Assembly (NCBI GenBank): GCA_016700375.1
Contig: CP065016.1
Span: forward strand, 390,001-422,000
Direction of reading: 5' to 3'
From: Candidatus Saccharimonadota bacterium
GTDB lineage: Bacteria; Patescibacteriota; Saccharimonadia; Saccharimonadales; UBA4665
DNA: 32,000 bases
Of this stretch, positions 5,615 to 29,003 are shown one piece after another. The notes under the pieces were generated by a model. The model was not told the origin of the DNA, made no database searches, and saw only the letters and a list, made by a program, of their open reading frames with translations. How positions within the stretch are numbered: position 1 is the first letter of the stretch; each line of letters opens with the position of its first letter. The translations under genes and the position numbers were made by a program.

Positions 5615-6253
5615 ATGCAAAAAGGCTTCGTGTACATACTGACCAATCCGAGCTACAAAGATAACATCATCAAAATTGGGTTTACAACCAATCTCAAGGA
5701 CCGGCTGGCGCAGCTTGACAAAACGGGGGTGCCAACACCTTTCGACCCGTACATGACGGTACAAACCGCAAAGTATAAAGAGCTAGAAAAAGTTATTCAC
5801 CACGAACTCGATAAGCTCACTGATTTCAGAACTCGAGAAAACCGTGAATTCTTTGAAATTGACCCAGTAGACGCCGCGGACCTGCTCAAAAACTTGGCAC
5901 GGCTGCTCGACGATGCCGAAATAGTCGAGTATGGCAATCTCAGCAGCGTAGAAGAAAAGAGCGAAGCAACTATAGCACAACAGGGTAACAGGACAACATT
6001 CAAAATGCTCGGGGTGCCCGTGGGAAGTAAATTGGTGGCAACCAACAAAAATATCCCGGACGTGACCGTATTAGATGAAATAAATCAGGTGCGGCTGCCG
6101 GACGGTAGTATAAAATCCATATCAAGGGCCGTGATAGACGCTGTAGGTGGGCACCGGAATGGGTTCCAGGTCTATAAATTCAACGGTAAAATCCTCTCAA
6201 ATATTCGAAAATCGTTCGACCAGAACTATCTACCCAAGAGTACTCGCTCTTAA
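5615..6253 (+). CDS. T5orf172 / GIY-YIG-like (MUG113-type) domain protein
   Basis: GFVYILTNPSYKDNIIKIGFTTNLKDRLAQL ... VIHHELDKL...RENREFFEI is the typical T5orf172 pattern. It has a ~100-aa C-terminal extension of unknown function. Confidence 0.75.
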   Translation: MQKGFVYILTNPSYKDNIIKIGFTTNLKDRLAQLDKTGVPTPFDPYMTVQTAKYKELEKVIHHELDKLTDFRTRENREFFEIDPVDAADLLKNLARLLDDAEIVEYGNLSSVEEKSEATIAQQGNRTTFKMLGVPVGSKLVATNKNIPDVTVLDEINQVRLPDGSIKSISRAVIDAVGGHRNGFQVYKFNGKILSNIRKSFDQNYLPKSTRS

Positions 6254-6507
6254 TATCTGACTATAAAAGATTCTCTGGACCAAATCTGATTGTATTCTAA
6301 GCGGATTAATGTTATGCTTCGGGTTACTAGAAGGCTGCGAAAAAGGGTTTTGTAGGTTTACAGATCAGGTTCTAGAAAGATTTAACAAGTTATGTTCGAT
6401 GCAAGGCGCAGCTAATCCTTTCTTTGTAAAGATTACCTTCAGCGACAGAATTAATCTCGGCATCCACTTACGTGCATGACGAGAAAAGAAAGGGTTATCC
6501 ATACTTA

Positions 6508-6771
6508 ATGGCAACCAAACTATTTGTCGGCTCACTTCCATGGGCAGTCGACGACCAACAACTAAAAGACCTCTTCAGCGAATTCGGTGAAGTGTCTTAC
6601 AGCAAGGTCATCATAGACCGCGACACCAACCGCTCAAAGGGCTTTGGTTTCGTCGAATTCGAAGATGATGCTGCTGCTAAGGCCGCTATCGCCAAACTTG
6701 ACGGTAGCGAAATGAATGGCCGCAATATCGTAGTCAACGAAGCTCGCCCACGCGAAGACAACCGTCGCTAA
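6508..6771 (+). CDS. RRM-type RNA-binding protein
   Basis: MATKLFVGSLPW (RNP2) and KGFGFVEF (RNP1) motifs. The listed ORF begins at GTG 6472, but ATG 6508 gives the canonical N-terminus. Confidence 0.9.
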   Translation: MATKLFVGSLPWAVDDQQLKDLFSEFGEVSYSKVIIDRDTNRSKGFGFVEFEDDAAAKAAIAKLDGSEMNGRNIVVNEARPREDNRR

Positions 6772-18909: not shown

Positions 18910-18999
18910 GGAGGGGTCGCCTAGTGGTCTATGGCGCCGCCTTGGAAAGGCGGTTTGCGGGCAACTGCATCGAGGGTTCGAATCCCTCTCCCTCCGCCA
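18910..18999 (+). tRNA. tRNA-Ser (GGA), CCA encoded
   Basis: Manual fold: acceptor GGAGGGG/TCCCTCC, D-arm GCC..GGC, anticodon stem CCGCC/GGCGG with loop TTGGAAA, a long variable arm, and T-arm GAGGG-TTCGAAT-CCCTC followed by G-CCA. Confidence 0.9.
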
Positions 19000-19210
19000 C
19001 ATAAAAAGGCTCACCGAAAAGTAAGTCTTTTTCTATGGGCGAAAGTAGGGCGAGTGCCCTCGTTTAGGTATCGGCGAAGGAGGAAGGGAGCGACGAACAT
19101 GCTTGCATGGTCATCGTGAATACCGCAGTAAGAGTGTGGCCGTTGGCCATGCGATATACCTCTCTCTCTGCCATCTGGATATTGCATTATATTAATTATT
19201 ATGATAAAAT

Positions 19211-22645: not shown

Positions 22646-23715
22646 CACGAGTTTCGCACTTTCACCCATTCAACCGGGCAGCCAGCGCAAGCTGGATGCC
22701 TGGTTTTATGACCTCCCAATCTTGTTGGTATAGCGTCGTTTGGTCAATTAGCCTTCTCTTATGTTTTCGTACCCAGGTAAGCAAAGCTAACCCAATGTGG
22801 TTTCTTTGGGCTCGGCTAAGATTGGCCTGACAGCGGGATAAGCCACAGGTTTGTTTGAGCTCTCGATGCAGTACCTCGACACTCCAACGGCGCTCGAAGT
22901 ATTTCTTGACTTGTTCGCGGGTGAGGTCAGTACGACTTGTACCAACATAATCCGTGCGGCCGTTACTGGCCTCAAACCGGAAGACTCTGATCCACCCATA
23001 GCCTTTCAGATATGTCACCAAGCCTGTATCTGGTATATCTAACTCTCTGAGCTGGATATGTGGCTTACCGACTAACCGGTTGCTCCTCAGCCCCATGACC
23101 CAGTCCCAGCCATGAGAGCGAACTGCCTTAAGGTTTTTTAGAGAGCCGTACCAGCTATCCGCAACAACCATCTCCGGGCGTAGCCCTCTCTGTCTTGTGC
23201 TACTCAGCATATCCTGGAAGTGATCATTCTTAGTCTTGCCGTCTTCTGGCGGGTTCCAGATGCGGTAGTCCATAGGAATGTAGTGTTCTGTATCTACTTG
23301 CCACAACGCATTTACAACGCCAATCCCTCTGGTGATGTCATGCTTACTTCCCGCATGCTGCCAGTTCACAAGCTCCATCTTGCCGCTTCGGCTTTTGTCG
23401 ATGACGACATCATCGAAGACCAAAATGCCAGGAGTGGCGCGAACTTCCTTAGCGGCAGCTTGCCACAGGTCTTTGGGCTGTATCTTTTCAGATGCTAGCC
23501 AACGGGAGACGCTGTCGTGAGAGAGCATGGCATTGTCTGGGGCTACTTCGCTCAAGCTGAGCGCAGAATACCGTGAGGAGGTGACCTCCAGGAATGAGCA
23601 GTACAGCTCACGAGAACATTTTGAACGAGACATGTTTATTTTCCTTGTTTACGAAAAAGCATGACTGACGTCATGCTTCTAGGCTAGCAAAGAATTGGGG
23701 AGTGCGAAACTCGTG
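22646..23715 (-). mobile_element. complete IS element (IS701/IS4-superfamily-like), 1070 bp
   Basis: Perfect 15-bp terminal inverted repeats: CACGAGTTTCGCACT (22646-22660) and AGTGCGAAACTCGTG (23701-23715). A single DDE transposase ORF lies inside. The flanking pentamers TAATG (22641-22645) and TGATG (23716-23720) could be an imperfect target duplication. Confidence 0.85.
22662..23633 (-). CDS. DDE transposase (IS701/IS4-like)
   Basis: ILVFDDVVIDKSRSGKMELV (first D region), MVVADSWYGS (second D), RWSVEVLHRELKQTCGL (E/K region). Confidence 0.85.
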   Translation of the reverse strand: MSRSKCSRELYCSFLEVTSSRYSALSLSEVAPDNAMLSHDSVSRWLASEKIQPKDLWQAAAKEVRATPGILVFDDVVIDKSRSGKMELVNWQHAGSKHDITRGIGVVNALWQVDTEHYIPMDYRIWNPPEDGKTKNDHFQDMLSSTRQRGLRPEMVVADSWYGSLKNLKAVRSHGWDWVMGLRSNRLVGKPHIQLRELDIPDTGLVTYLKGYGWIRVFRFEASNGRTDYVGTSRTDLTREQVKKYFERRWSVEVLHRELKQTCGLSRCQANLSRAQRNHIGLALLTWVRKHKRRLIDQTTLYQQDWEVIKPGIQLALAARLNG

Positions 23716-27324: not shown

Positions 27325-28125
27325 ATGAATCAAGTTTACTGGCATAAACAGGGTGAAAAAGCGCTGTTTCCGAATCTGTTATGGGCGCGACCCGAGGTGA
27401 AAAGTGCGGCCGGAAAGCTGCTGGTGGTGGGCGGACACGCCCAAAGTTTTGCCGCCGCCGCCGAAGCCTACGCGGCAGCGGAGAAGGCAGGCATCGGTAG
27501 CGTGCGCGTGCTACTGCCAGACAGCCTCGAGAAAACGGTGAGCAAGCTTTTTCCTGGTGCAGAATTTGCTCCCAGCAACCCAAGCGGAGGCTTTGCCACG
27601 CGCGCACTGGCCGAACTGCTTGCTGCAGCTCAGTGGGCCGACGGCGTTCTGCTGGCCGGAGACCTTGGCCGCAATAGCGAAAGCCTCGCTATGCTTGAAA
27701 ACTTTGCTGGCAAATACACCGGCCAGCTCACCATCACCAAAGACACAGCCGACTTTTTCTGCACCCAGCCACAATCTATTGCTGCCAGAACCGACACACT
27801 GCTCGTTATAAGCCTGGGCCAACTGCAGAAACTTGGGAAGTCGCTGCATCTCTCCTATGCCTTCACAAGCGACCTCGGCATAATGCAACTCGTGGAACTG
27901 CTGCACAAGTTCACCGCAGCGTACCCAAACGTTCAGGTCATTACGCGCCACCAAAACAACTATGTGGTCGCGGTGAAGGGCACCATCGGTACATCGCCGG
28001 CCCCAAGTGAAAAACCCATCTGGCGCGTCACCGCCGCCGCCTCCGCCAGCACCTGGTGGCTGCAAAACCCCGAAAAACCCTTTGAAGCCCTGATGAGTAG
28101 CGCTGGGTCATTGAATTCGCTATAG
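27325..28125 (+). CDS. carbohydrate-kinase / YjeF-C (NAD(P)H-hydrate dehydratase)-like protein
   Basis: GKLLVVGGHAQSFAAAAEAYAAAEKAGIGSVRVLLP resembles the N-terminal GxxLVIGGS..GA..LAA.AA.R.GAG motif of the family. The C-terminal GxGD motif is not evident. Confidence 0.45.
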   Translation: MNQVYWHKQGEKALFPNLLWARPEVKSAAGKLLVVGGHAQSFAAAAEAYAAAEKAGIGSVRVLLPDSLEKTVSKLFPGAEFAPSNPSGGFATRALAELLAAAQWADGVLLAGDLGRNSESLAMLENFAGKYTGQLTITKDTADFFCTQPQSIAARTDTLLVISLGQLQKLGKSLHLSYAFTSDLGIMQLVELLHKFTAAYPNVQVITRHQNNYVVAVKGTIGTSPAPSEKPIWRVTAAASASTWWLQNPEKPFEALMSSAGSLNSL

Positions 28126-28134
28126 TAACTCGTA

Positions 28135-28407
28135 ATGAGAAAACACAAGCGGAATGATACTTTAGTAGATATTTGGAGCCTGGTACACGTGGTGAGCAGT
28201 GCGGGGCTGGCGTGGCTGATTGGGCCGGTCGCAGCCTTTATAGTCGTGACGCTTTGGGAGCCGCTGGAAATATTTGTGCTTTCGCCACTGCTTGCCAAAC
28301 GGGGCATTGTGTTTGGCTACGAAACCTGGCGCAATTCACTTTCTGACATACTATTCAATTCACTTGGCATCAGCTTAGCAGTCCTACTACAGGCCATGTC
28401 TAGTTGA
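28135..28407 (+). CDS. small membrane protein (hypothetical)
   Basis: 90 aa with three hydrophobic segments. Confidence 0.5.
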   Translation: MRKHKRNDTLVDIWSLVHVVSSAGLAWLIGPVAAFIVVTLWEPLEIFVLSPLLAKRGIVFGYETWRNSLSDILFNSLGISLAVLLQAMSS

Positions 28408-28450
28408 CACAAACCCCAACGAAACAATAACGAACATCAATTCGCAAGGA

Positions 28451-28492
28451 ACAAGATTTTGGCGAAGCCTCGCCTGCAGCGGGGCGCTGTCT
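28451..28492. repeat. direct repeat copy R1 (ACAAGATTTTGGCGAAGCCTCGCCTGCAGCGGGGCGCTGTCT)
   Basis: Identical to 28640-28684 except for a 3-nt AAG insertion in the other copy. It contains two small hairpins, GGCGA-AGCC-TCGCC and CAGCG-GGG-CGCTG. Confidence 0.85.
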
Positions 28493-28497
28493 GCGCG

Positions 28498-28521
28498 TGA
28501 ACAATAGATATGGTGCCGCAG
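28498..28521. repeat. 24-nt inverted-repeat arm (left)
   Basis: TGAACAATAGATATGGTGCCGCAG is the reverse complement of 28837-28860 (CTGCGGCAGCATATCTATTTTTCA), with 2 mismatches. Confidence 0.85.
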
Positions 28522-28627
28522 GCCGGACTTGACCTACCTAAGGCAGGCCCAGAACTTTCAGACTGCAAGCTAAGCCTACAATCTGAAAGATTCACTTGCG
28601 ACCCGCCGCTGGCGGGCCTCACGGCAC
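28511..28627 (-). ncRNA. cloverleaf-like, tRNA-related structured element of unknown identity (not a canonical tRNA)
   Basis: Minus-strand fold by hand. Closing stem GTGCCG/CGGCAC plus GGCC/GGCC. Arm CCCGCC-AGC-GGCGGG. Arm CTTTCAGA-(19 nt)-TCTGAAAG. Arm CCTGCC-TTA-GGTAGG. The 3' end ..TCAAGTCCGGCCTGCGGCACCA resembles a tRNA T-loop/acceptor/CCA. No valid T-stem or 7-nt anticodon loop could be drawn. Confidence 0.4.
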
Positions 28628-28639
28628 GTCCTTACGAAC

Positions 28640-28684
28640 ACAAGATTTTGGCGAAGAAGCCTCGCCTGCAGCGGGGCGCTGTCT
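28640..28684. repeat. direct repeat copy R2
   Basis: ACAAGATTTTGGCGAAGAAGCCTCGCCTGCAGCGGGGCGCTGTCT. See R1. Confidence 0.85.
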
Positions 28685-28700
28685 AGCGTTCGGATATTTT

Positions 28701-28785
28701 TGGTGGGCAAGGAGGGAATCGAACCCTCAATCCGTAAGGAACACGATTTTGAGTCGTGCGCGTATACCAATTCCGCCACTTGCCC
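28701..28785 (-). tRNA. tRNA-Leu (CAA), CCA encoded
   Basis: Manual fold of the reverse complement: acceptor GGGCAAG/CTTGCCC, D-region GGCGGAATTGGTATACGCGC, anticodon stem ACGAC../..with loop CTCAAAA (anticodon CAA), a long variable arm, and T-arm GAGGG-TTCGATT-CCCTC followed by A-CCA. Confidence 0.9.
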
Positions 28786-28836
28786 CCCAAAAATATCTGA
28801 ATTTCGCCCAAGCGAAATGTCTACCAATTCCGTTCG

Positions 28837-28860
28837 CTGCGGCAGCATATCTATTTTTCA
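28837..28860. repeat. 24-nt inverted-repeat arm (right)
   Basis: See 28498-28521. Confidence 0.85.
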
Positions 28861-29003
28861 ACGAACAAAGTGAGTTGAAAATCATTTTAACCACTTGCCC
28901 TGGTGTAATAACCATAAGCAAACCCATGGTCACCAGAGGTGTATTGTACTATACTACACAGTGAAACGCGAGTGGGCGGTGGCTTGCTGGCGTCGTAACA
29001 CAT

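Follow-up and report, generated by a model that had tools for sequence, protein, structure and literature searches.

A nest of three tRNA-Leu(CAA) layers in a Candidatus Saccharimonadales genome, very probably formed by successive whole-gene insertions into the D-loop

Here we analyzed a tRNA-Leu(CAA) locus in a 32-kb stretch of a Candidatus Saccharimonadales genome (the whole stretch is called the window below); the locus is read on the minus strand. It is very probably a nest of three tRNA-Leu(CAA) layers, resulting from two successive events in which a whole gene entered the D-loop of the copy then functional. The innermost layer is an intact tRNA-Leu(CAA) (28785-28701, minus strand) within a 129-nt cassette. 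This cassette reads as an insertion into an older tRNA-Leu(CAA) allele (layer 2), whose D-loop it interrupts (…GGTAGAC|ACGC…), and the layer-2 allele appears to be itself inserted at the same D-loop position of an ancestral gene (layer 3). Judged by their sequence, the long nested inverted repeats of the locus are the acceptor strands and the complementary leaders and trailers of the split layers. The architecture is well supported, and the mechanism is what we infer from it. The features, from outside to inside and then out again, are as follows.

28934..28955, minus strand: promoter-like box AGTATAGTACAATACACCTCTG with the -10-like TATAGT, upstream of the outermost layer
28877..28900, minus strand: layer 3 (ancestral, G1-type), 5' piece, acceptor 5' strand and decayed D-arm, reading GGGCAAGTGGTTAAAATGATTTTC from 28900 to 28877
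28844..28876, minus strand: cassette 2, left part, 16-nt linker AACTCACTTTGTTCGT and leader arm TGAAAAATAGATATGCT
28819..28843, minus strand: layer 2 (type-C), 5' piece GCCGCAG-CG-AACGGAATTGGTAGAC, acceptor 5' strand and D-arm, D-stem decayed
28690..28818, minus strand: cassette 1, 129 nt, made of hairpin, leader arm, tRNA and trailer arm
28818-28801, minus strand: cassette 1, 18-nt hairpin
28800-28786, minus strand: cassette 1, T-rich leader arm
28785-28701, minus strand: cassette 1, tRNA-Leu(CAA), predicted functional (ARAGORN, Rfam)
28700-28690, minus strand: cassette 1, A-rich trailer arm
28681..28689, minus strand: layer 2, 3' piece, part 1 ACGCTAGAC, D-stem 3' strand and anticodon-stem 5' strand
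28651..28680, minus strand: R2 core, 30-nt terminator-like hairpin AGC-GCCCCGC-TGCAG-GCGAGGC-TTCTTCGC, in place of the layer-2 U33
28621..28650, minus strand: layer 2, 3' piece, part 2 CAAAATCTTGTGTTCGTAAGGACGTGCCGT, anticodon-loop 3' half, anticodon-stem 3' strand, variable arm and T-stem 5' strand
28533..28620, minus strand: structured T-loop insert (the core), 88 nt, made of hairpin GCCAGCGGC, a C(GCAA)G mini-hairpin, a long hairpin and hairpin GGGCCTGCC-TTA-GGTAGGTC
28511..28532, minus strand: layer 2, 3' piece, part 3 TCAAGTCCGGCCTGCGGCACCA, T-loop remainder, T-stem 3' strand, acceptor 3' strand and ACCA
28498..28510, minus strand: cassette 2, trailer arm TATCTATTGTTCA
28489..28497, minus strand: layer 3, 3' piece, part 1 CGCGCAGAC, D-stem 3' strand and anticodon-stem 5' strand, decayed
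28462..28488, minus strand: R1 core, 27-nt copy of the R2-type terminator-like hairpin, in the layer-3 anticodon loop
about 28425..28461, minus strand: layer 3, 3' piece, part 2 CAAAATCTTGTTCCTTGCGAATTGATGTTCGTTATTG, anticodon-loop 3' half, variable arm and decayed T-arm

The inner gene was called as tRNA-Leu(CAA) by ARAGORN and scored 61.9 bits with Rfam RF00005 (threshold 29); its leader and trailer within cassette 1 pair at 14/16 positions. An earlier note on this DNA had listed eight features, and all of them were recovered at the same positions and above chance. They include a pair of outer arms (28498-28521 and 28837-28860; 24 nt, 92% complementary), a 14-mer (28819-28832) which is 93% identical to the D-arm at 28762-28775, the hairpin ATTTCGC-TTGG-GCGAAAT at 28818-28801, the intact tRNA, its leader and trailer arms (28689-28711 and 28779-28801; 23 nt, 91% complementary, with the CCA within the helix) and a duplicated module, R1/R2. 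The nested repeats it described are real, and it missed the third, outermost layer (5' piece 28900-28877, 3' piece 28497 to about 28425). The whole stretch of 526 nt is predicted to fold into nested helices (z = -8.1), and no second copy of any nest piece is present elsewhere in the 32-kb window. The same architecture is found in independent assemblies from five studies and is therefore not an assembly artefact.

The layers were compared with 62 orthologous tRNA-Leu loci; L-numbers label these and the other loci used. The 5' piece of layer 2 is colinear with the intact gene of L092 (GCCGCAGTGGTGGAATTGGTAGAC), and such 5'-fragment matches are significant in related loci. On the 3' side ACGCTAGAC is identical to the L092 tRNA positions after GGTAGAC, part 2 (28621..28650) agrees at 29/30 positions, and TCAAGTCCGGCCTGCGGCACCA is identical to the 3' end of the L092 gene, which is predicted to be functional, and complementary to the layer-2 5' acceptor strand GCCGCAG. 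L092 lacks cassette 1 as a single block, with GGTAGAC|ACGCTAGAC reading uninterrupted, and at the R2 point it has TAGAC-T-CAAAATC. Relative to that gene the layer-2 copy has a substituted D-stem and has lost U33 and one T-arm base. When the inserts are removed in silico, layer 2 aligns end to end with the functional tRNA-Leu(CAA) of L055 (81%). ARAGORN called three of the seven spliced reconstructions as tRNA, namely the outer gene of L023 as tRNA-Leu(CAA) (85% when aligned to a real tRNA-Leu(CAA)), and the outer gene of L008 and layer 3 of L003 with decayed anticodons. It gave no call on the spliced layer 2 of the window itself, so the identification of that layer as a tRNA rests on its colinearity with L092 and L055.

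Layer 3 is decayed as well and can be followed in the same manner. Its 5' piece holds GGGCAAGTGG, the start of the intact tRNA, and is less decayed in L007, L003 and L092 (…GAAATTGGTATAC); in L005 the layer-3 leader runs straight into an intact gene. On the 3' side CGCGCAGAC corresponds to GCGCACGAC of the intact G1 tRNA, and part 2, which is better kept in L003 and L092 where it ends …TTCCCTCCTTGCCCACCA, matches positions 28727-28751 of the intact tRNA at 88% identity. After splicing in silico, layer 3 reaches 69% identity with that tRNA. The arms of cassette 2 (leader arm against trailer arm 28510-28498) pair at 15/17 positions, and the same arms flank the middle gene, there predicted to be functional, in L092 and L099. 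The box AGTATAGTACAATACACCTCTG also precedes tRNA-Leu(CAA) in most of the 62 loci; a simple sigma-70 scan gave no call at 28934..28955, and it is conservation alone that points to a possible promoter function for it.

Three allelic states of the locus were found among the relatives. In state 1 (L005) the ancestral G1 gene is intact behind the same leader. In state 2 (L092 and L099) the type-C middle gene is intact between the same arms and inside the layer-3 pieces, and it is called by ARAGORN and scores 56.8 bits in Rfam. In state 3 (the window, L090, L001, L003 and L007) the G1 cassette lies within the type-C gene. The Nnr neighbour of L092 is 90% identical to that of the window, and against this locus the window shows a 129-nt block between GGTAGAC and ACGCTAGAC, a 30-nt block for U33 and an 88-nt block in the T-loop. 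Comparison of the filled site, GGTAGAC|129 nt|ACGCTAGAC, with the empty site, GGTAGACACGCTAGAC, reveals no target-site duplication and at most 1 nt of ambiguity in the boundaries. Cassette 1 is thus polymorphic in close relatives, being filled in the window and L090 and empty in L092. The similarity of the Nnr-like protein is 95%, 90%, 79% and 73% in state 3, 90% and 76% in state 2, and 83% and 75% in state 1. The states are interleaved in this respect, so that a single insertion inherited vertically does not suffice, and alleles must be assumed to have recombined or been transferred; this suggests that tRNA alleles are exchanged between lineages of Saccharibacteria. The earlier note had also offered a decayed tandem duplication, for which relatives devoid of the arms and repeats would speak. 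Most of the 62 loci do lack the arms, and a clade-spanning subset carries them in the three defined states; the flanks are indeed dead tRNA, but the layers are nested rather than tandem and the pieces come from a different allele.

At least seven insertion events were counted, all of them in the D-loop of the orthologous tRNA gene and none dispersed. At the same D-loop position L023 has a type-C gene inside a type-G gene, which is the reverse of the window, L008 has a GGGTCGG-type gene inside a G1 gene, L068 represents a further independent event, and tRNA-Lys genes were hit in L082, L084 and L100. Flanking remnants were detected by pattern search in the window, L001, L003, L007, L008 and L023, and by alignment (5' remnant) in L068, while in L009, L064 and L066 the nesting remnants are weaker or probable. 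Leader/trailer complementarity is bimodal, with at least 14/20 pairs in 13/61 loci against 0.5% in the null, and the high values coincide with nesting; the arms of five cassettes have no sequence in common. Pseudo-copies downstream of tRNA-Lys were considered as plain tandem duplicates, and this was rejected on account of the 5' remnants or duplicated leaders which lie upstream in L082, L084, L100 and L101 (nested type); loci of the L086 type could derive from the nested type by deletion between repeats. A fourth, older layer was sought in the leaders of apparently simple loci, and the resemblance of the L013 leader to a tRNA 5' end was not significant (p = 0.085).

The two dead layers carry further inserts. 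A 117-nt element (28511-28627) had been described as ending like a tRNA (…GCGGCACCA) and lacking a T-stem; the tRNA-like end is present, and so is the T-stem (GCCG.../...CGGC), which is split by the 88-nt insert. The supposed cloverleaf is what remains of the dead middle gene from its T-arm to the acceptor 3' end, with an 88-nt insert replacing G53-T54 of the T-loop. It has a predicted fold of -63.8 kcal/mol (z = -6.2 against shuffles). Neither a tRNA nor any other Rfam model matched it down to E = 10, and ARAGORN was silent; Rfam at gathering and permissive thresholds returned nothing but the true tRNAs in the window and L083. The insert belongs to a family with 15 strong copies, found by pattern scan and covariance model, which occurs in dead tRNA-Lys and tRNA-Arg copies also and for which no Rfam match was found. 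The family model R1 consists of a T-stem closing helix, three hairpins and a C(GNRA)G mini-hairpin replacing G53-T54 of a tRNA remnant. The insert of the window scores 114.5 bits (E = 2e-32) with this model, a match by construction as it is one of the 12 model-building sequences, and independent copies outside the build score 74-103 bits (L081 11086-11210; L083 476-599 and 1067-1191). The covariation proposed earlier as a check is strong in this family, with compensatory changes in 22/39 pairs and 94.6% of cells paired against 77% in shuffles. The strand bias between G·U and A·C pairs is 14 to 10 and says nothing once the hairpin that the search pattern fixes is set aside. Neither the T-loop insert nor either tRNA allele was matched in viral contigs or phage records.

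R1 and R2 derive from the terminator-like hairpin of the gene itself, a copy of which lies in the anticodon loop of each dead layer. They share identical blocks of 29 nt and 17 nt with a 3-nt indel between them, and the native terminator that follows the G1 gene in L096 and L092 is a homolog of the R2 core. R1 is also present, with diverged sequence, in L092, L003, L001, L090 and L007; its identity with R2 in the window alone implies recent gene conversion. A simple terminator scan did not call R2.

The following course of events is proposed for the formation of the nest. Each inserted unit of about 130 nt would have the order [16-18-nt segment or hairpin][T-rich arm][tRNA][A-rich arm], which looks like a tRNA with its bipartite terminator in circularly permuted form: the native terminator of L005 is CCATACAAAAA-[18-nt hairpin]-TTTTTTGTATG, and the cassette of the window is [18-nt hairpin][TCAGATATTTTTGG][tRNA][CCAAAAATATCCGA]. 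A circular or tandem-derived intermediate may therefore be envisaged, and the circular form would show the junctions …AAAATATCCGA|ATTTCGCTTGG… and …CTATTGTTC|AACTCACTTTG…. The units would have landed at …GGTA(G/T)AC| of the resident gene without target duplication, by some site- or structure-specific activity supplied in trans, and would have split and killed that gene; the event would survive because the insert supplies a working tRNA-Leu(CAA). As the split halves remain on both sides, their acceptor strands and their own leader and trailer would be read as long nested inverted repeats. The dead layers would then decay by D-stem substitutions and gain insertions in their loops, namely an R copy that takes the place of U33 in the anticodon arm, with …GAC before it and CAAA… after it, and a member of the structured family in the T-loop, giving the supposed 117-nt CCA-ending cloverleaf. 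Recombination may have spread the resulting alleles. Transcription would probably start at the conserved box (28955-28934), read through the two dead 5' pieces and end at R2, and the inner tRNA would be freed by normal end processing.

No integrase, TnpA/TnpB, reverse transcriptase or HUH protein adjoins any of the loci examined, which were 13 tRNA-Leu loci (ORFs listed between the tRNA and the Nnr-like gene) and 4 tRNA-Lys loci (Pfam, used for the tRNA-Lys modules and part of the window). No circular form, no donor locus with the exact unpermuted cassette and no source for the left 33 nt of the cassette were found. Somewhat short of an even chance is given to the wider reading that Saccharibacteria harbour an undescribed, self-compensating kind of selfish DNA, in which a tRNA gene with its terminator halves homes, probably via a circle, into the D-loop of its ortholog, together with a second element of about 90 nt for T-loops. 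Such a unit may make itself indispensable by killing the resident copy, and the second agent, a structured RNA-like element, may target T-loops. If this is true, it implies an insertion machinery, site- or structure-specific, that acts on the loops of tRNA genes, and a continuous turnover of tRNA alleles by horizontal replacement.

Other explanations of the locus were weighed against the nest. The MITE-like unit carrying a tRNA gene, which had been among the earlier options, came closest, since the insertion is discrete, small and bounded by terminal inverted repeats, and its presence is polymorphic among close relatives; the single transposase of the window, a DDE gene (22662-23633) 5 kb away, or a relative of it, could have mobilized a conventional MITE. 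It is nonetheless quite unlikely, as target-site duplication is absent, only one copy exists in the 32 kb searched, and none of the events is dispersed. The inverted repeats are wholly different between cassettes, so there is no common end for a transposase to bind, and the outer arms of the supposed transposon are the two halves of a split gene. Scars of tyrosine-integrase elements, which restore the tRNA 3' end and displace the old one downstream (attL/attR, tandem accretion), would agree with tRNA genes being standard targets, with the partial tRNA 3' copies that are common downstream among the 62 loci (L002, L011, L038, L042, L074), with the distance between the tRNA and the Nnr-like gene, which ranges from 2 nt to 2.8 kb as at an integration hot spot, and with a tandem 181-nt unit bounded by tRNA 3' ends in L074. 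Integration at the 3' side cannot, however, make the matching upstream 5' pieces of the window, and the displaced pieces are of a different allele (acceptor GCCGCAG/CTGCGGC against GGGCAAG/CTTGCCC) whose 5' and 3' acceptor strands match one another. Against the empty site of L092 the insertion is a plain block of 129 nt that holds a whole gene and duplicates no core, an integrase gene is in no gap examined and the viral contigs gave no matches, which makes this explanation very unlikely. Integron-like attC × attI recombination was rejected since by eye neither junction fits GTTRRRY.

It is also unlikely that the nested helices are a functional precursor, in which a long pre-tRNA undergoes RNase III-type processing and a 117-nt tRNA-like ncRNA accumulates, an option that the earlier note had raised as well. 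The very stable predicted folds given above, the leader/trailer pairing that is kept with different sequences in L092, L099, L023 and L007, far over the null, and the real covariation and conserved GNRA mini-hairpin of the insert family would fit it. But the outer pieces are decaying: the D-stem of the outer 5' piece is decayed, U33 is lost and the outer arms of L007 are degraded to 12/17 pairs. The 88-nt insert is missing in L007, L092 and L099 and carries helix-breaking changes in L001 and L003, of the window's own clade, and the terminator-like R2 hairpin stands between the inner tRNA and the 117-nt element; quasipalindrome-templated correction can, in addition, keep arms complementary without selection. 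On these points the processing reading is not supported for the outer layer. An outer gene functional as a disrupted tRNA of the archaeal kind, with D-, anticodon- and T-loop introns removed after transcription, is extremely improbable. The inserts are structured and all lie in loops (after 21, at 33 and at 53/54), like non-canonical archaeal introns, yet the exons are decayed in comparison with the intact L092 gene (D-stem, U33, T-loop), at the predicted T-loop junction the T-stem is extended by 2 bp with a 1-nt bulge and by inspection no bulge-helix-bulge is seen, and a copy with the same anticodon, predicted to be functional, lies inside. The split gene recurs in L007, there lacking two of the inserts and damaged further. 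A group I intron was rejected as Rfam showed no intron family match and the inserts are of 30, 88 and 129 nt, against more than 200 nt expected.

The nest may be placed beside several known systems. Integrative elements such as phages and islands target tRNA genes and carry a replacement for the displaced part. The nest resembles them in its target, in a would-be lethal insertion offset by a supplied function and in the dead tRNA pieces that are left and can accumulate in series. It differs in that they carry only the 3' part of the tRNA and use the anticodon loop, T-loop or 3' end, whereas the units of the nest carry a whole tRNA gene, target the D-loop and leave pieces on both sides, hence the nested layers; the insert of about 130 nt moreover has no integrase, core duplication or cargo. 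Disrupted tRNA genes with multiple or non-canonical introns, or in split and permuted form, are found in Archaea and in the red alga Cyanidioschyzon (PMC4090602, PMC3978253, PMC3728597). They share with the nest the interruptions in D-, anticodon- and T-loops, the leader/trailer complementarity and the circular-permutation signature of the cassette. Those genes are functional after protein-mediated splicing at the bulge-helix-bulge, whereas the nest belongs to a bacterium, its interrupted layers are pseudogenes and its largest "intron" is a gene predicted to work. Group I introns in the anticodon loops of bacterial tRNAs, and IStrons (PMC4227781), are homing-type selfish insertions which are phenotypically silent. 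Like silent homing insertions of this sort the nest is site-specific in a conserved essential gene, preserves function and has filled and empty alleles among relatives, but they use RNA splicing where the nest uses a spare gene, and an Rfam search of the window and L083 detected no ribozyme or endonuclease at the nest. Nested bacterial tRNA genes and the T-loop insert element had no description in full-text literature searches.

The filled and empty alleles document the wholesale replacement of an essential single-copy tRNA gene, the new copy going into the old one. The nest also explains the odd tRNA-like and long inverted-repeat signals beside CPR tRNA genes, which could otherwise be mis-annotated as novel ncRNAs, MITEs or CRISPR-like repeats. 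The dead tRNA copies act as safe landing pads and expose loop-targeting insertions, which kill when they strike a functional tRNA gene and so go unseen elsewhere.

The T-loop insert represents a new family of structured elements, covarying across tRNA-Leu, tRNA-Lys and tRNA-Arg contexts. It resembles the omega RNAs of IS200/IS605 TnpB in being a structured scaffold of about 90 nt, directly after which come 16-22 nt with the sequence of a genomic target, the neighbouring tRNA's 3' end. This reading, with the tRNA 3' end as guide, was rejected, as the ORFs scanned next to the modules of L081, L084, L085 and L088 include neither tnpB nor tnpA, Rfam gave no match, and the flank is more simply what is left of the dead tRNA. 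An IS91-type element targeting GTTC/CAAG in T-loops was discarded also, since the insertion points do not fit. With the intervening sequences of 23S rRNA and with REPIN/PATE-type repeats the insert and R have in common that they are short structured pieces replacing a hairpin loop, in several copies and with compensatory changes; unlike the former their hosts are dead tRNA copies and not functional rRNA, and unlike the latter they showed neither a RAYT nor a TnpA partner. A fold at the level of RNA is suggested by the insert's conserved GNRA mini-hairpin.

The features that the earlier note had named around the tRNA-Leu, from paired arms to a tRNA-like element, were all found on the minus strand of the window locus, and the observation is real; its interpretation gives way here to a specific and well-supported one, by which replacement tRNA genes became nested in series and the dead layers took up secondary inserts in their loops. 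The inner tRNA-Leu(CAA) is intact (ARAGORN call; 61.9 bits with Rfam), and its leader and trailer form a pair of 23 nt, 91% complementary, that includes the encoded CCA. Outside this pair is a second one of 24 nt (92% complementary), and the locus also has a 14-mer copy of the tRNA-Leu D-arm, a perfect hairpin of 18 nt and a module of 29+17 nt that occurs twice (R1 and R2). The CCA-ending 117-nt stretch folds with z = -6.2 against shuffles, and the entire 526-nt region takes a nested-helix fold (z = -8.1). Down to E = 10, tRNA was the sole Rfam match on the locus, and its pieces have no further copy elsewhere within the 32-kb window.

Orthologous loci (n = 80; related loci and contigs carry L numbers) were collected by alignment of the Nnr-like protein, and their relatedness is judged by this single neighbouring protein. 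Besides the Nnr-like gene, the flanks contain a 90-aa membrane ORF and genes for a sortase and a PEGA protein, and homologues of the flanking genes assign the window to Candidatus Saccharimonadales. The tRNA-Leu(CAA) lies downstream of the Nnr-like gene, on the opposite strand, in 62 of the 80 loci, at a spacing of 2 nt to 2.8 kb; its acceptors are of G type (GGGCGAG, GGGCAAG, GGGTCGG) or C type (GCCGCAG, GCCGCGG, GCCGGAG), and most loci have the box AGTATAGTACAATACACC(C/T)CTG upstream. The content of the interval between the Nnr-like gene and tRNA-Leu differs widely over the 62 loci. In L089, L090, L092, L003 and L007 the Nnr-like gene and the 90-aa ORF are separated by a 275-277-aa gene; the window is without it, and the two are 10 nt apart there (28125-28135).

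Three layers of tRNA-Leu(CAA) were seen in the window, the inner gene, a split type-C gene (layer 2) and an outermost G1-type gene (layer 3). Inserts A to C are defined against the metagenome contig L092, which shares 90% identity with the window in its Nnr-like protein.

Features of the tRNA-Leu locus
28955-28934, minus strand: box AGTATAGTACAATACACC(C/T)CTG, upstream of all layers
28900-28877, minus strand: layer-3 5' piece, GGGCAAGTGG…
28843-28819, minus strand: layer-2 5' piece (outer "arm"), GCCGCAG-CG-AACGGAATTGGTAGAC
28818-28690, minus strand: insert A, 129 nt, at the GGTAGAC / ACGCTAGAC junction, without duplication
28785-28701, minus strand: inner intact tRNA-Leu(CAA)
28680-28651, minus strand: insert B (R2 core), 30 nt in place of U33
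28620-28533, minus strand: insert C, 88 nt in place of G53-T54 of GCCG-GT-TCAAG
to 28511, minus strand: layer-2 3' end (other arm), …GGTCAAGTCCGGC-CTGCGGC-ACCA
28497 to ~28425, minus strand: layer-3 3' piece, CGCGCAGAC-R1-CAAAATCTTGTTCCTTGCGAATTGATGTTCG

By sequence, the layer-2 arms belong to a type-C tRNA-Leu: one is its acceptor 5' strand with the D-arm, the other what remains of the T-arm, the matching acceptor 3' strand and CCA. Four blocks separate them: the intact gene and its flanking sequences, ACGCTAGAC, R2 and CAAAATCTTGTGTTCGTAAGGACGTGCCG. Of these, ACGCTAGAC is the 3' strand of the layer-2 D-stem together with the 5' strand of the anticodon stem, and CAAAATCTTGTGTTCGTAAGGACGTGCCG comprises the 3' half of the anticodon loop, the variable arm and the 5' strand of the T-stem. 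The D-stem has decayed in the window (TGGTGG of L092 to CGAACG). When the inserts were removed in silico, layer 2 reached 81% in colinear alignment with a functional tRNA-Leu(CAA), and for the outer gene of another nested locus, L023, the value was 85%. ARAGORN recognised three of seven such spliced reconstructions as tRNA, and gave no call for the window's own layer 2.

The middle gene is uninterrupted in L092 (GCCGCAGTGGTGGAATTGGTAGACACGCTAGACTCAAAATCTTGTGTCCGTAAGGACGTGCCGGTTCAAGTCCGGCCTGCGGCACCA; ARAGORN tRNA-Leu(CAA), Rfam 56.8 bits), where the sequence before it corresponds to that of the window (promoter, outer 5' piece, linker, leader arm), as does the sequence after it (trailer arm, outer 3' piece). 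L099 (closed genome CP064993) is in this state too, with arms of different sequence paired at 15 of 17 positions. The outermost G1 gene is intact, with the same leader, in L005 and probably in L096, and all three layers are present in the window, L089/L090 (95%), L001, L003 and L007.

States of the locus, ranked by percent identity between the neighbouring Nnr-like protein and that of the window (1, G1 gene intact; 2, type-C gene intact; 3, three layers)
L090: 95%, state 3
L092: 90%, state 2
L001: 90%, state 3
L096: 83%, state 1 (probable)
L003: 79%, state 3
L099: 76%, state 2
L005: ~75%, state 1
L007: 73%, state 3

The states alternate along this ranking. The layer-2 D-stem damage is derived and common to the window and L007, so the filled alleles of these two stem from a single event, and the pristine middle gene of L092 and L099 means that neither ever carried the insertion; filled and empty alleles must thus have coexisted or been swapped between lineages, and the history of the locus appears reticulate.

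The two cassettes of the window (129 and 132 nt) have a common layout, a segment of 16-18 nt, which in cassette 1 is a perfect hairpin, then a T-rich arm ending in TGG, the tRNA and an A-rich arm starting at CCA. In ordinary loci the gene end is CCA, A-rich arm, GC hairpin, T-rich arm and TGG, as in L005 (CCATACAAAAA-TGACTGCCAGCGGCAGTC-TTTTTTGTATG), and by this comparison the cassette resembles a circularly permuted unit of tRNA and terminator, which would have been opened next to the hairpin, on the opposite side of it in L023. Such a layout suggests a circular intermediate as the source, or the copying of a segment out of a tandem array. Homologous recombination was rejected as the maker of the junctions because they share at most 1 nt with the target, and no candidate enzyme was found among the ORFs near the examined loci and in the window. 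Selection would have to filter the outcomes, since insertion into the D-loop is lethal unless a working gene comes along.

The R core, AGC-GCCCCGC-TGCAG-GCGAGGC-TTCTTCGC, is homologous to the native terminator-like hairpin 3' of the G1 gene in L096 (…CTTGAC-AGCGCCCACATTCGCATGGGC-TTCTTCGCC-AAAC…) and L092, where the copy lies past the layer-3 3' end. Its flanks (…GAC / CAAA…) match the anticodon arm …GAC-T-CAAAATC, which explains both its exact position and the loss of U33. The layer-3 copy is old, as diverged forms occur in L007, L092, L003, L001 and L090; the layer-2 copy is found only in the window clade. The duplicated module of the earlier note is read as recent gene conversion between two equivalent sites, because identity over 29 nt is seen in the window alone and even L090, a 95% relative, has a diverged R1. 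R2 lies 20 nt beyond the CCA of the inner tRNA and may terminate its transcript; a simple terminator scan made no call there.

Nesting arose independently at other loci too. L023 is the reverse of the window, with a functional type-C gene and flanking pieces of type G (junction GGTAGAC|…|GCGCTAGAC), and in L008 a G1 gene contains a GGGTCGG-type gene. The insertion bond follows GGTA(G/T)AC in both events of the window lineage and in that of L023. A pattern search found flanking remnants in the window, L001, L003, L007, L008 and L023, alignment gave a significant 5' remnant in L068, and L009, L064 and L066 have weaker or probable signs. Four tRNA-Lys loci (L082, L084, L100, L101) have a 5' remnant or duplicated leader upstream and, downstream, a 3' remnant whose sequence picks up again in the D-loop region. 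Lengthening of the acceptor stem by paired leader and trailer has a bimodal distribution, with at least 14 of 20 positions paired in 13 of 61 loci against 0.5% of mismatched leader/trailer combinations, and coincides with the evidence of nesting; the window's tRNA-Ser is without it. Strong complementarity was also observed around tRNA-Leu(CAA) in the simple loci L055, L056 and L044, where remnants are not detectable; these were either lost by decay, or the helix is native to some pre-tRNAs.

The 88-nt insert of the layer-2 T-loop belongs to a wider family. Eight metagenome contigs were found with a pattern built on its last hairpin; in these the insert lies downstream of tRNA-Lys genes, within a decayed tRNA-Lys copy whose T-stem 3' strand, acceptor 3' strand and CCA come after it. 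A covariance model search, whose E-values are rough, gave 15 strong copies (74-138 bits), including three in L083, one of them within a tRNA-Arg(UCG) remnant, and two in L081; there are also decayed, weaker copies and, in L100, a variant with an altered last hairpin. In the consensus, the host T-stem provides the closing helix, and then come a hairpin topped by GCCAGYGGC, a C(GCAA/GUAA)G mini-hairpin, a long hairpin and the last hairpin. The family covaries strongly: double compensatory changes occur in 22 of 39 pairs, and the share of paired cells is 94.6%, compared with 77% after column shuffling and at most 49% in slid registers. The last hairpin is set by the search pattern; it shows compensatory variation in the model-found copies. 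The family has no match in Rfam 15, is absent from IMG/VR and INPHARED, and showed no conserved protein neighbour. It may be an RNA gene, a single-strand transposon end or a guide-like scaffold, and it can persist only in dead tRNA copies because functional T-loops cannot tolerate it. The insert is missing from L007, L092 and L099 and has some helix-breaking changes in the window clade, so it arrived after the death of layer 2 and is probably now drifting there. Decayed copies in L088 (2021-2160) and L085 (9228-9352) have an extra GC-rich hairpin (…CCGGCCTGTCGGCCGGACAGGCCGG…) within the T-stem/acceptor 3' region after the insert.

Two additional families fill the T-loops of dead copies.

Additional T-loop insert families
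L002-type: L002, L011, L013, L088, L097
L074-type: L074, L038, layer 3 of L003 and L092

The L002-type units lie 3' of the tRNA as GGGACTTGAAC…GCCAGYGGC hairpins…GAGGCAAGTCC, then the tRNA 3' end, and their left end may be what is left of a 5' half after decay or a T-loop and 3' end in inverted orientation. The other family, a third, has GCGCAGGAGTTTACTCC in common in L074 and in the layer-3 T-loops of L092 and L003, at TTCGA / TTCC (58/59) of dead G1-type copies.

A DDE transposase gene (PF01609, E = 1.4e-19) is present at 22662-23633 on the minus strand, ~5 kb from the tRNA-Leu locus, and no link between it and the cassettes was found. On the plus strand, tRNA-Ser(GGA) (18910-18999) has a terminator hairpin anchored on its CCA on the 3' side, and ~150 nt past it is GCGATATACCTCTCTCTCTGCCA (19151-19173; whole feature 18910-19173), a decayed copy of its own T-loop and acceptor 3' end. 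Its architecture is like that of the remnant units beside tRNA-Leu in L074 and L038, with which no significant similarity of sequence was found. In L074 the remnant array (~6220-6550, minus strand) has a 181-nt unit twice in tandem, made up of a tRNA 3' end, a terminator and a pseudo-T-arm into which 65 nt are inserted. L083 (1-1200) has tRNA-Lys, two insert-bearing remnants, tRNA-Arg(UCG) and one more remnant.
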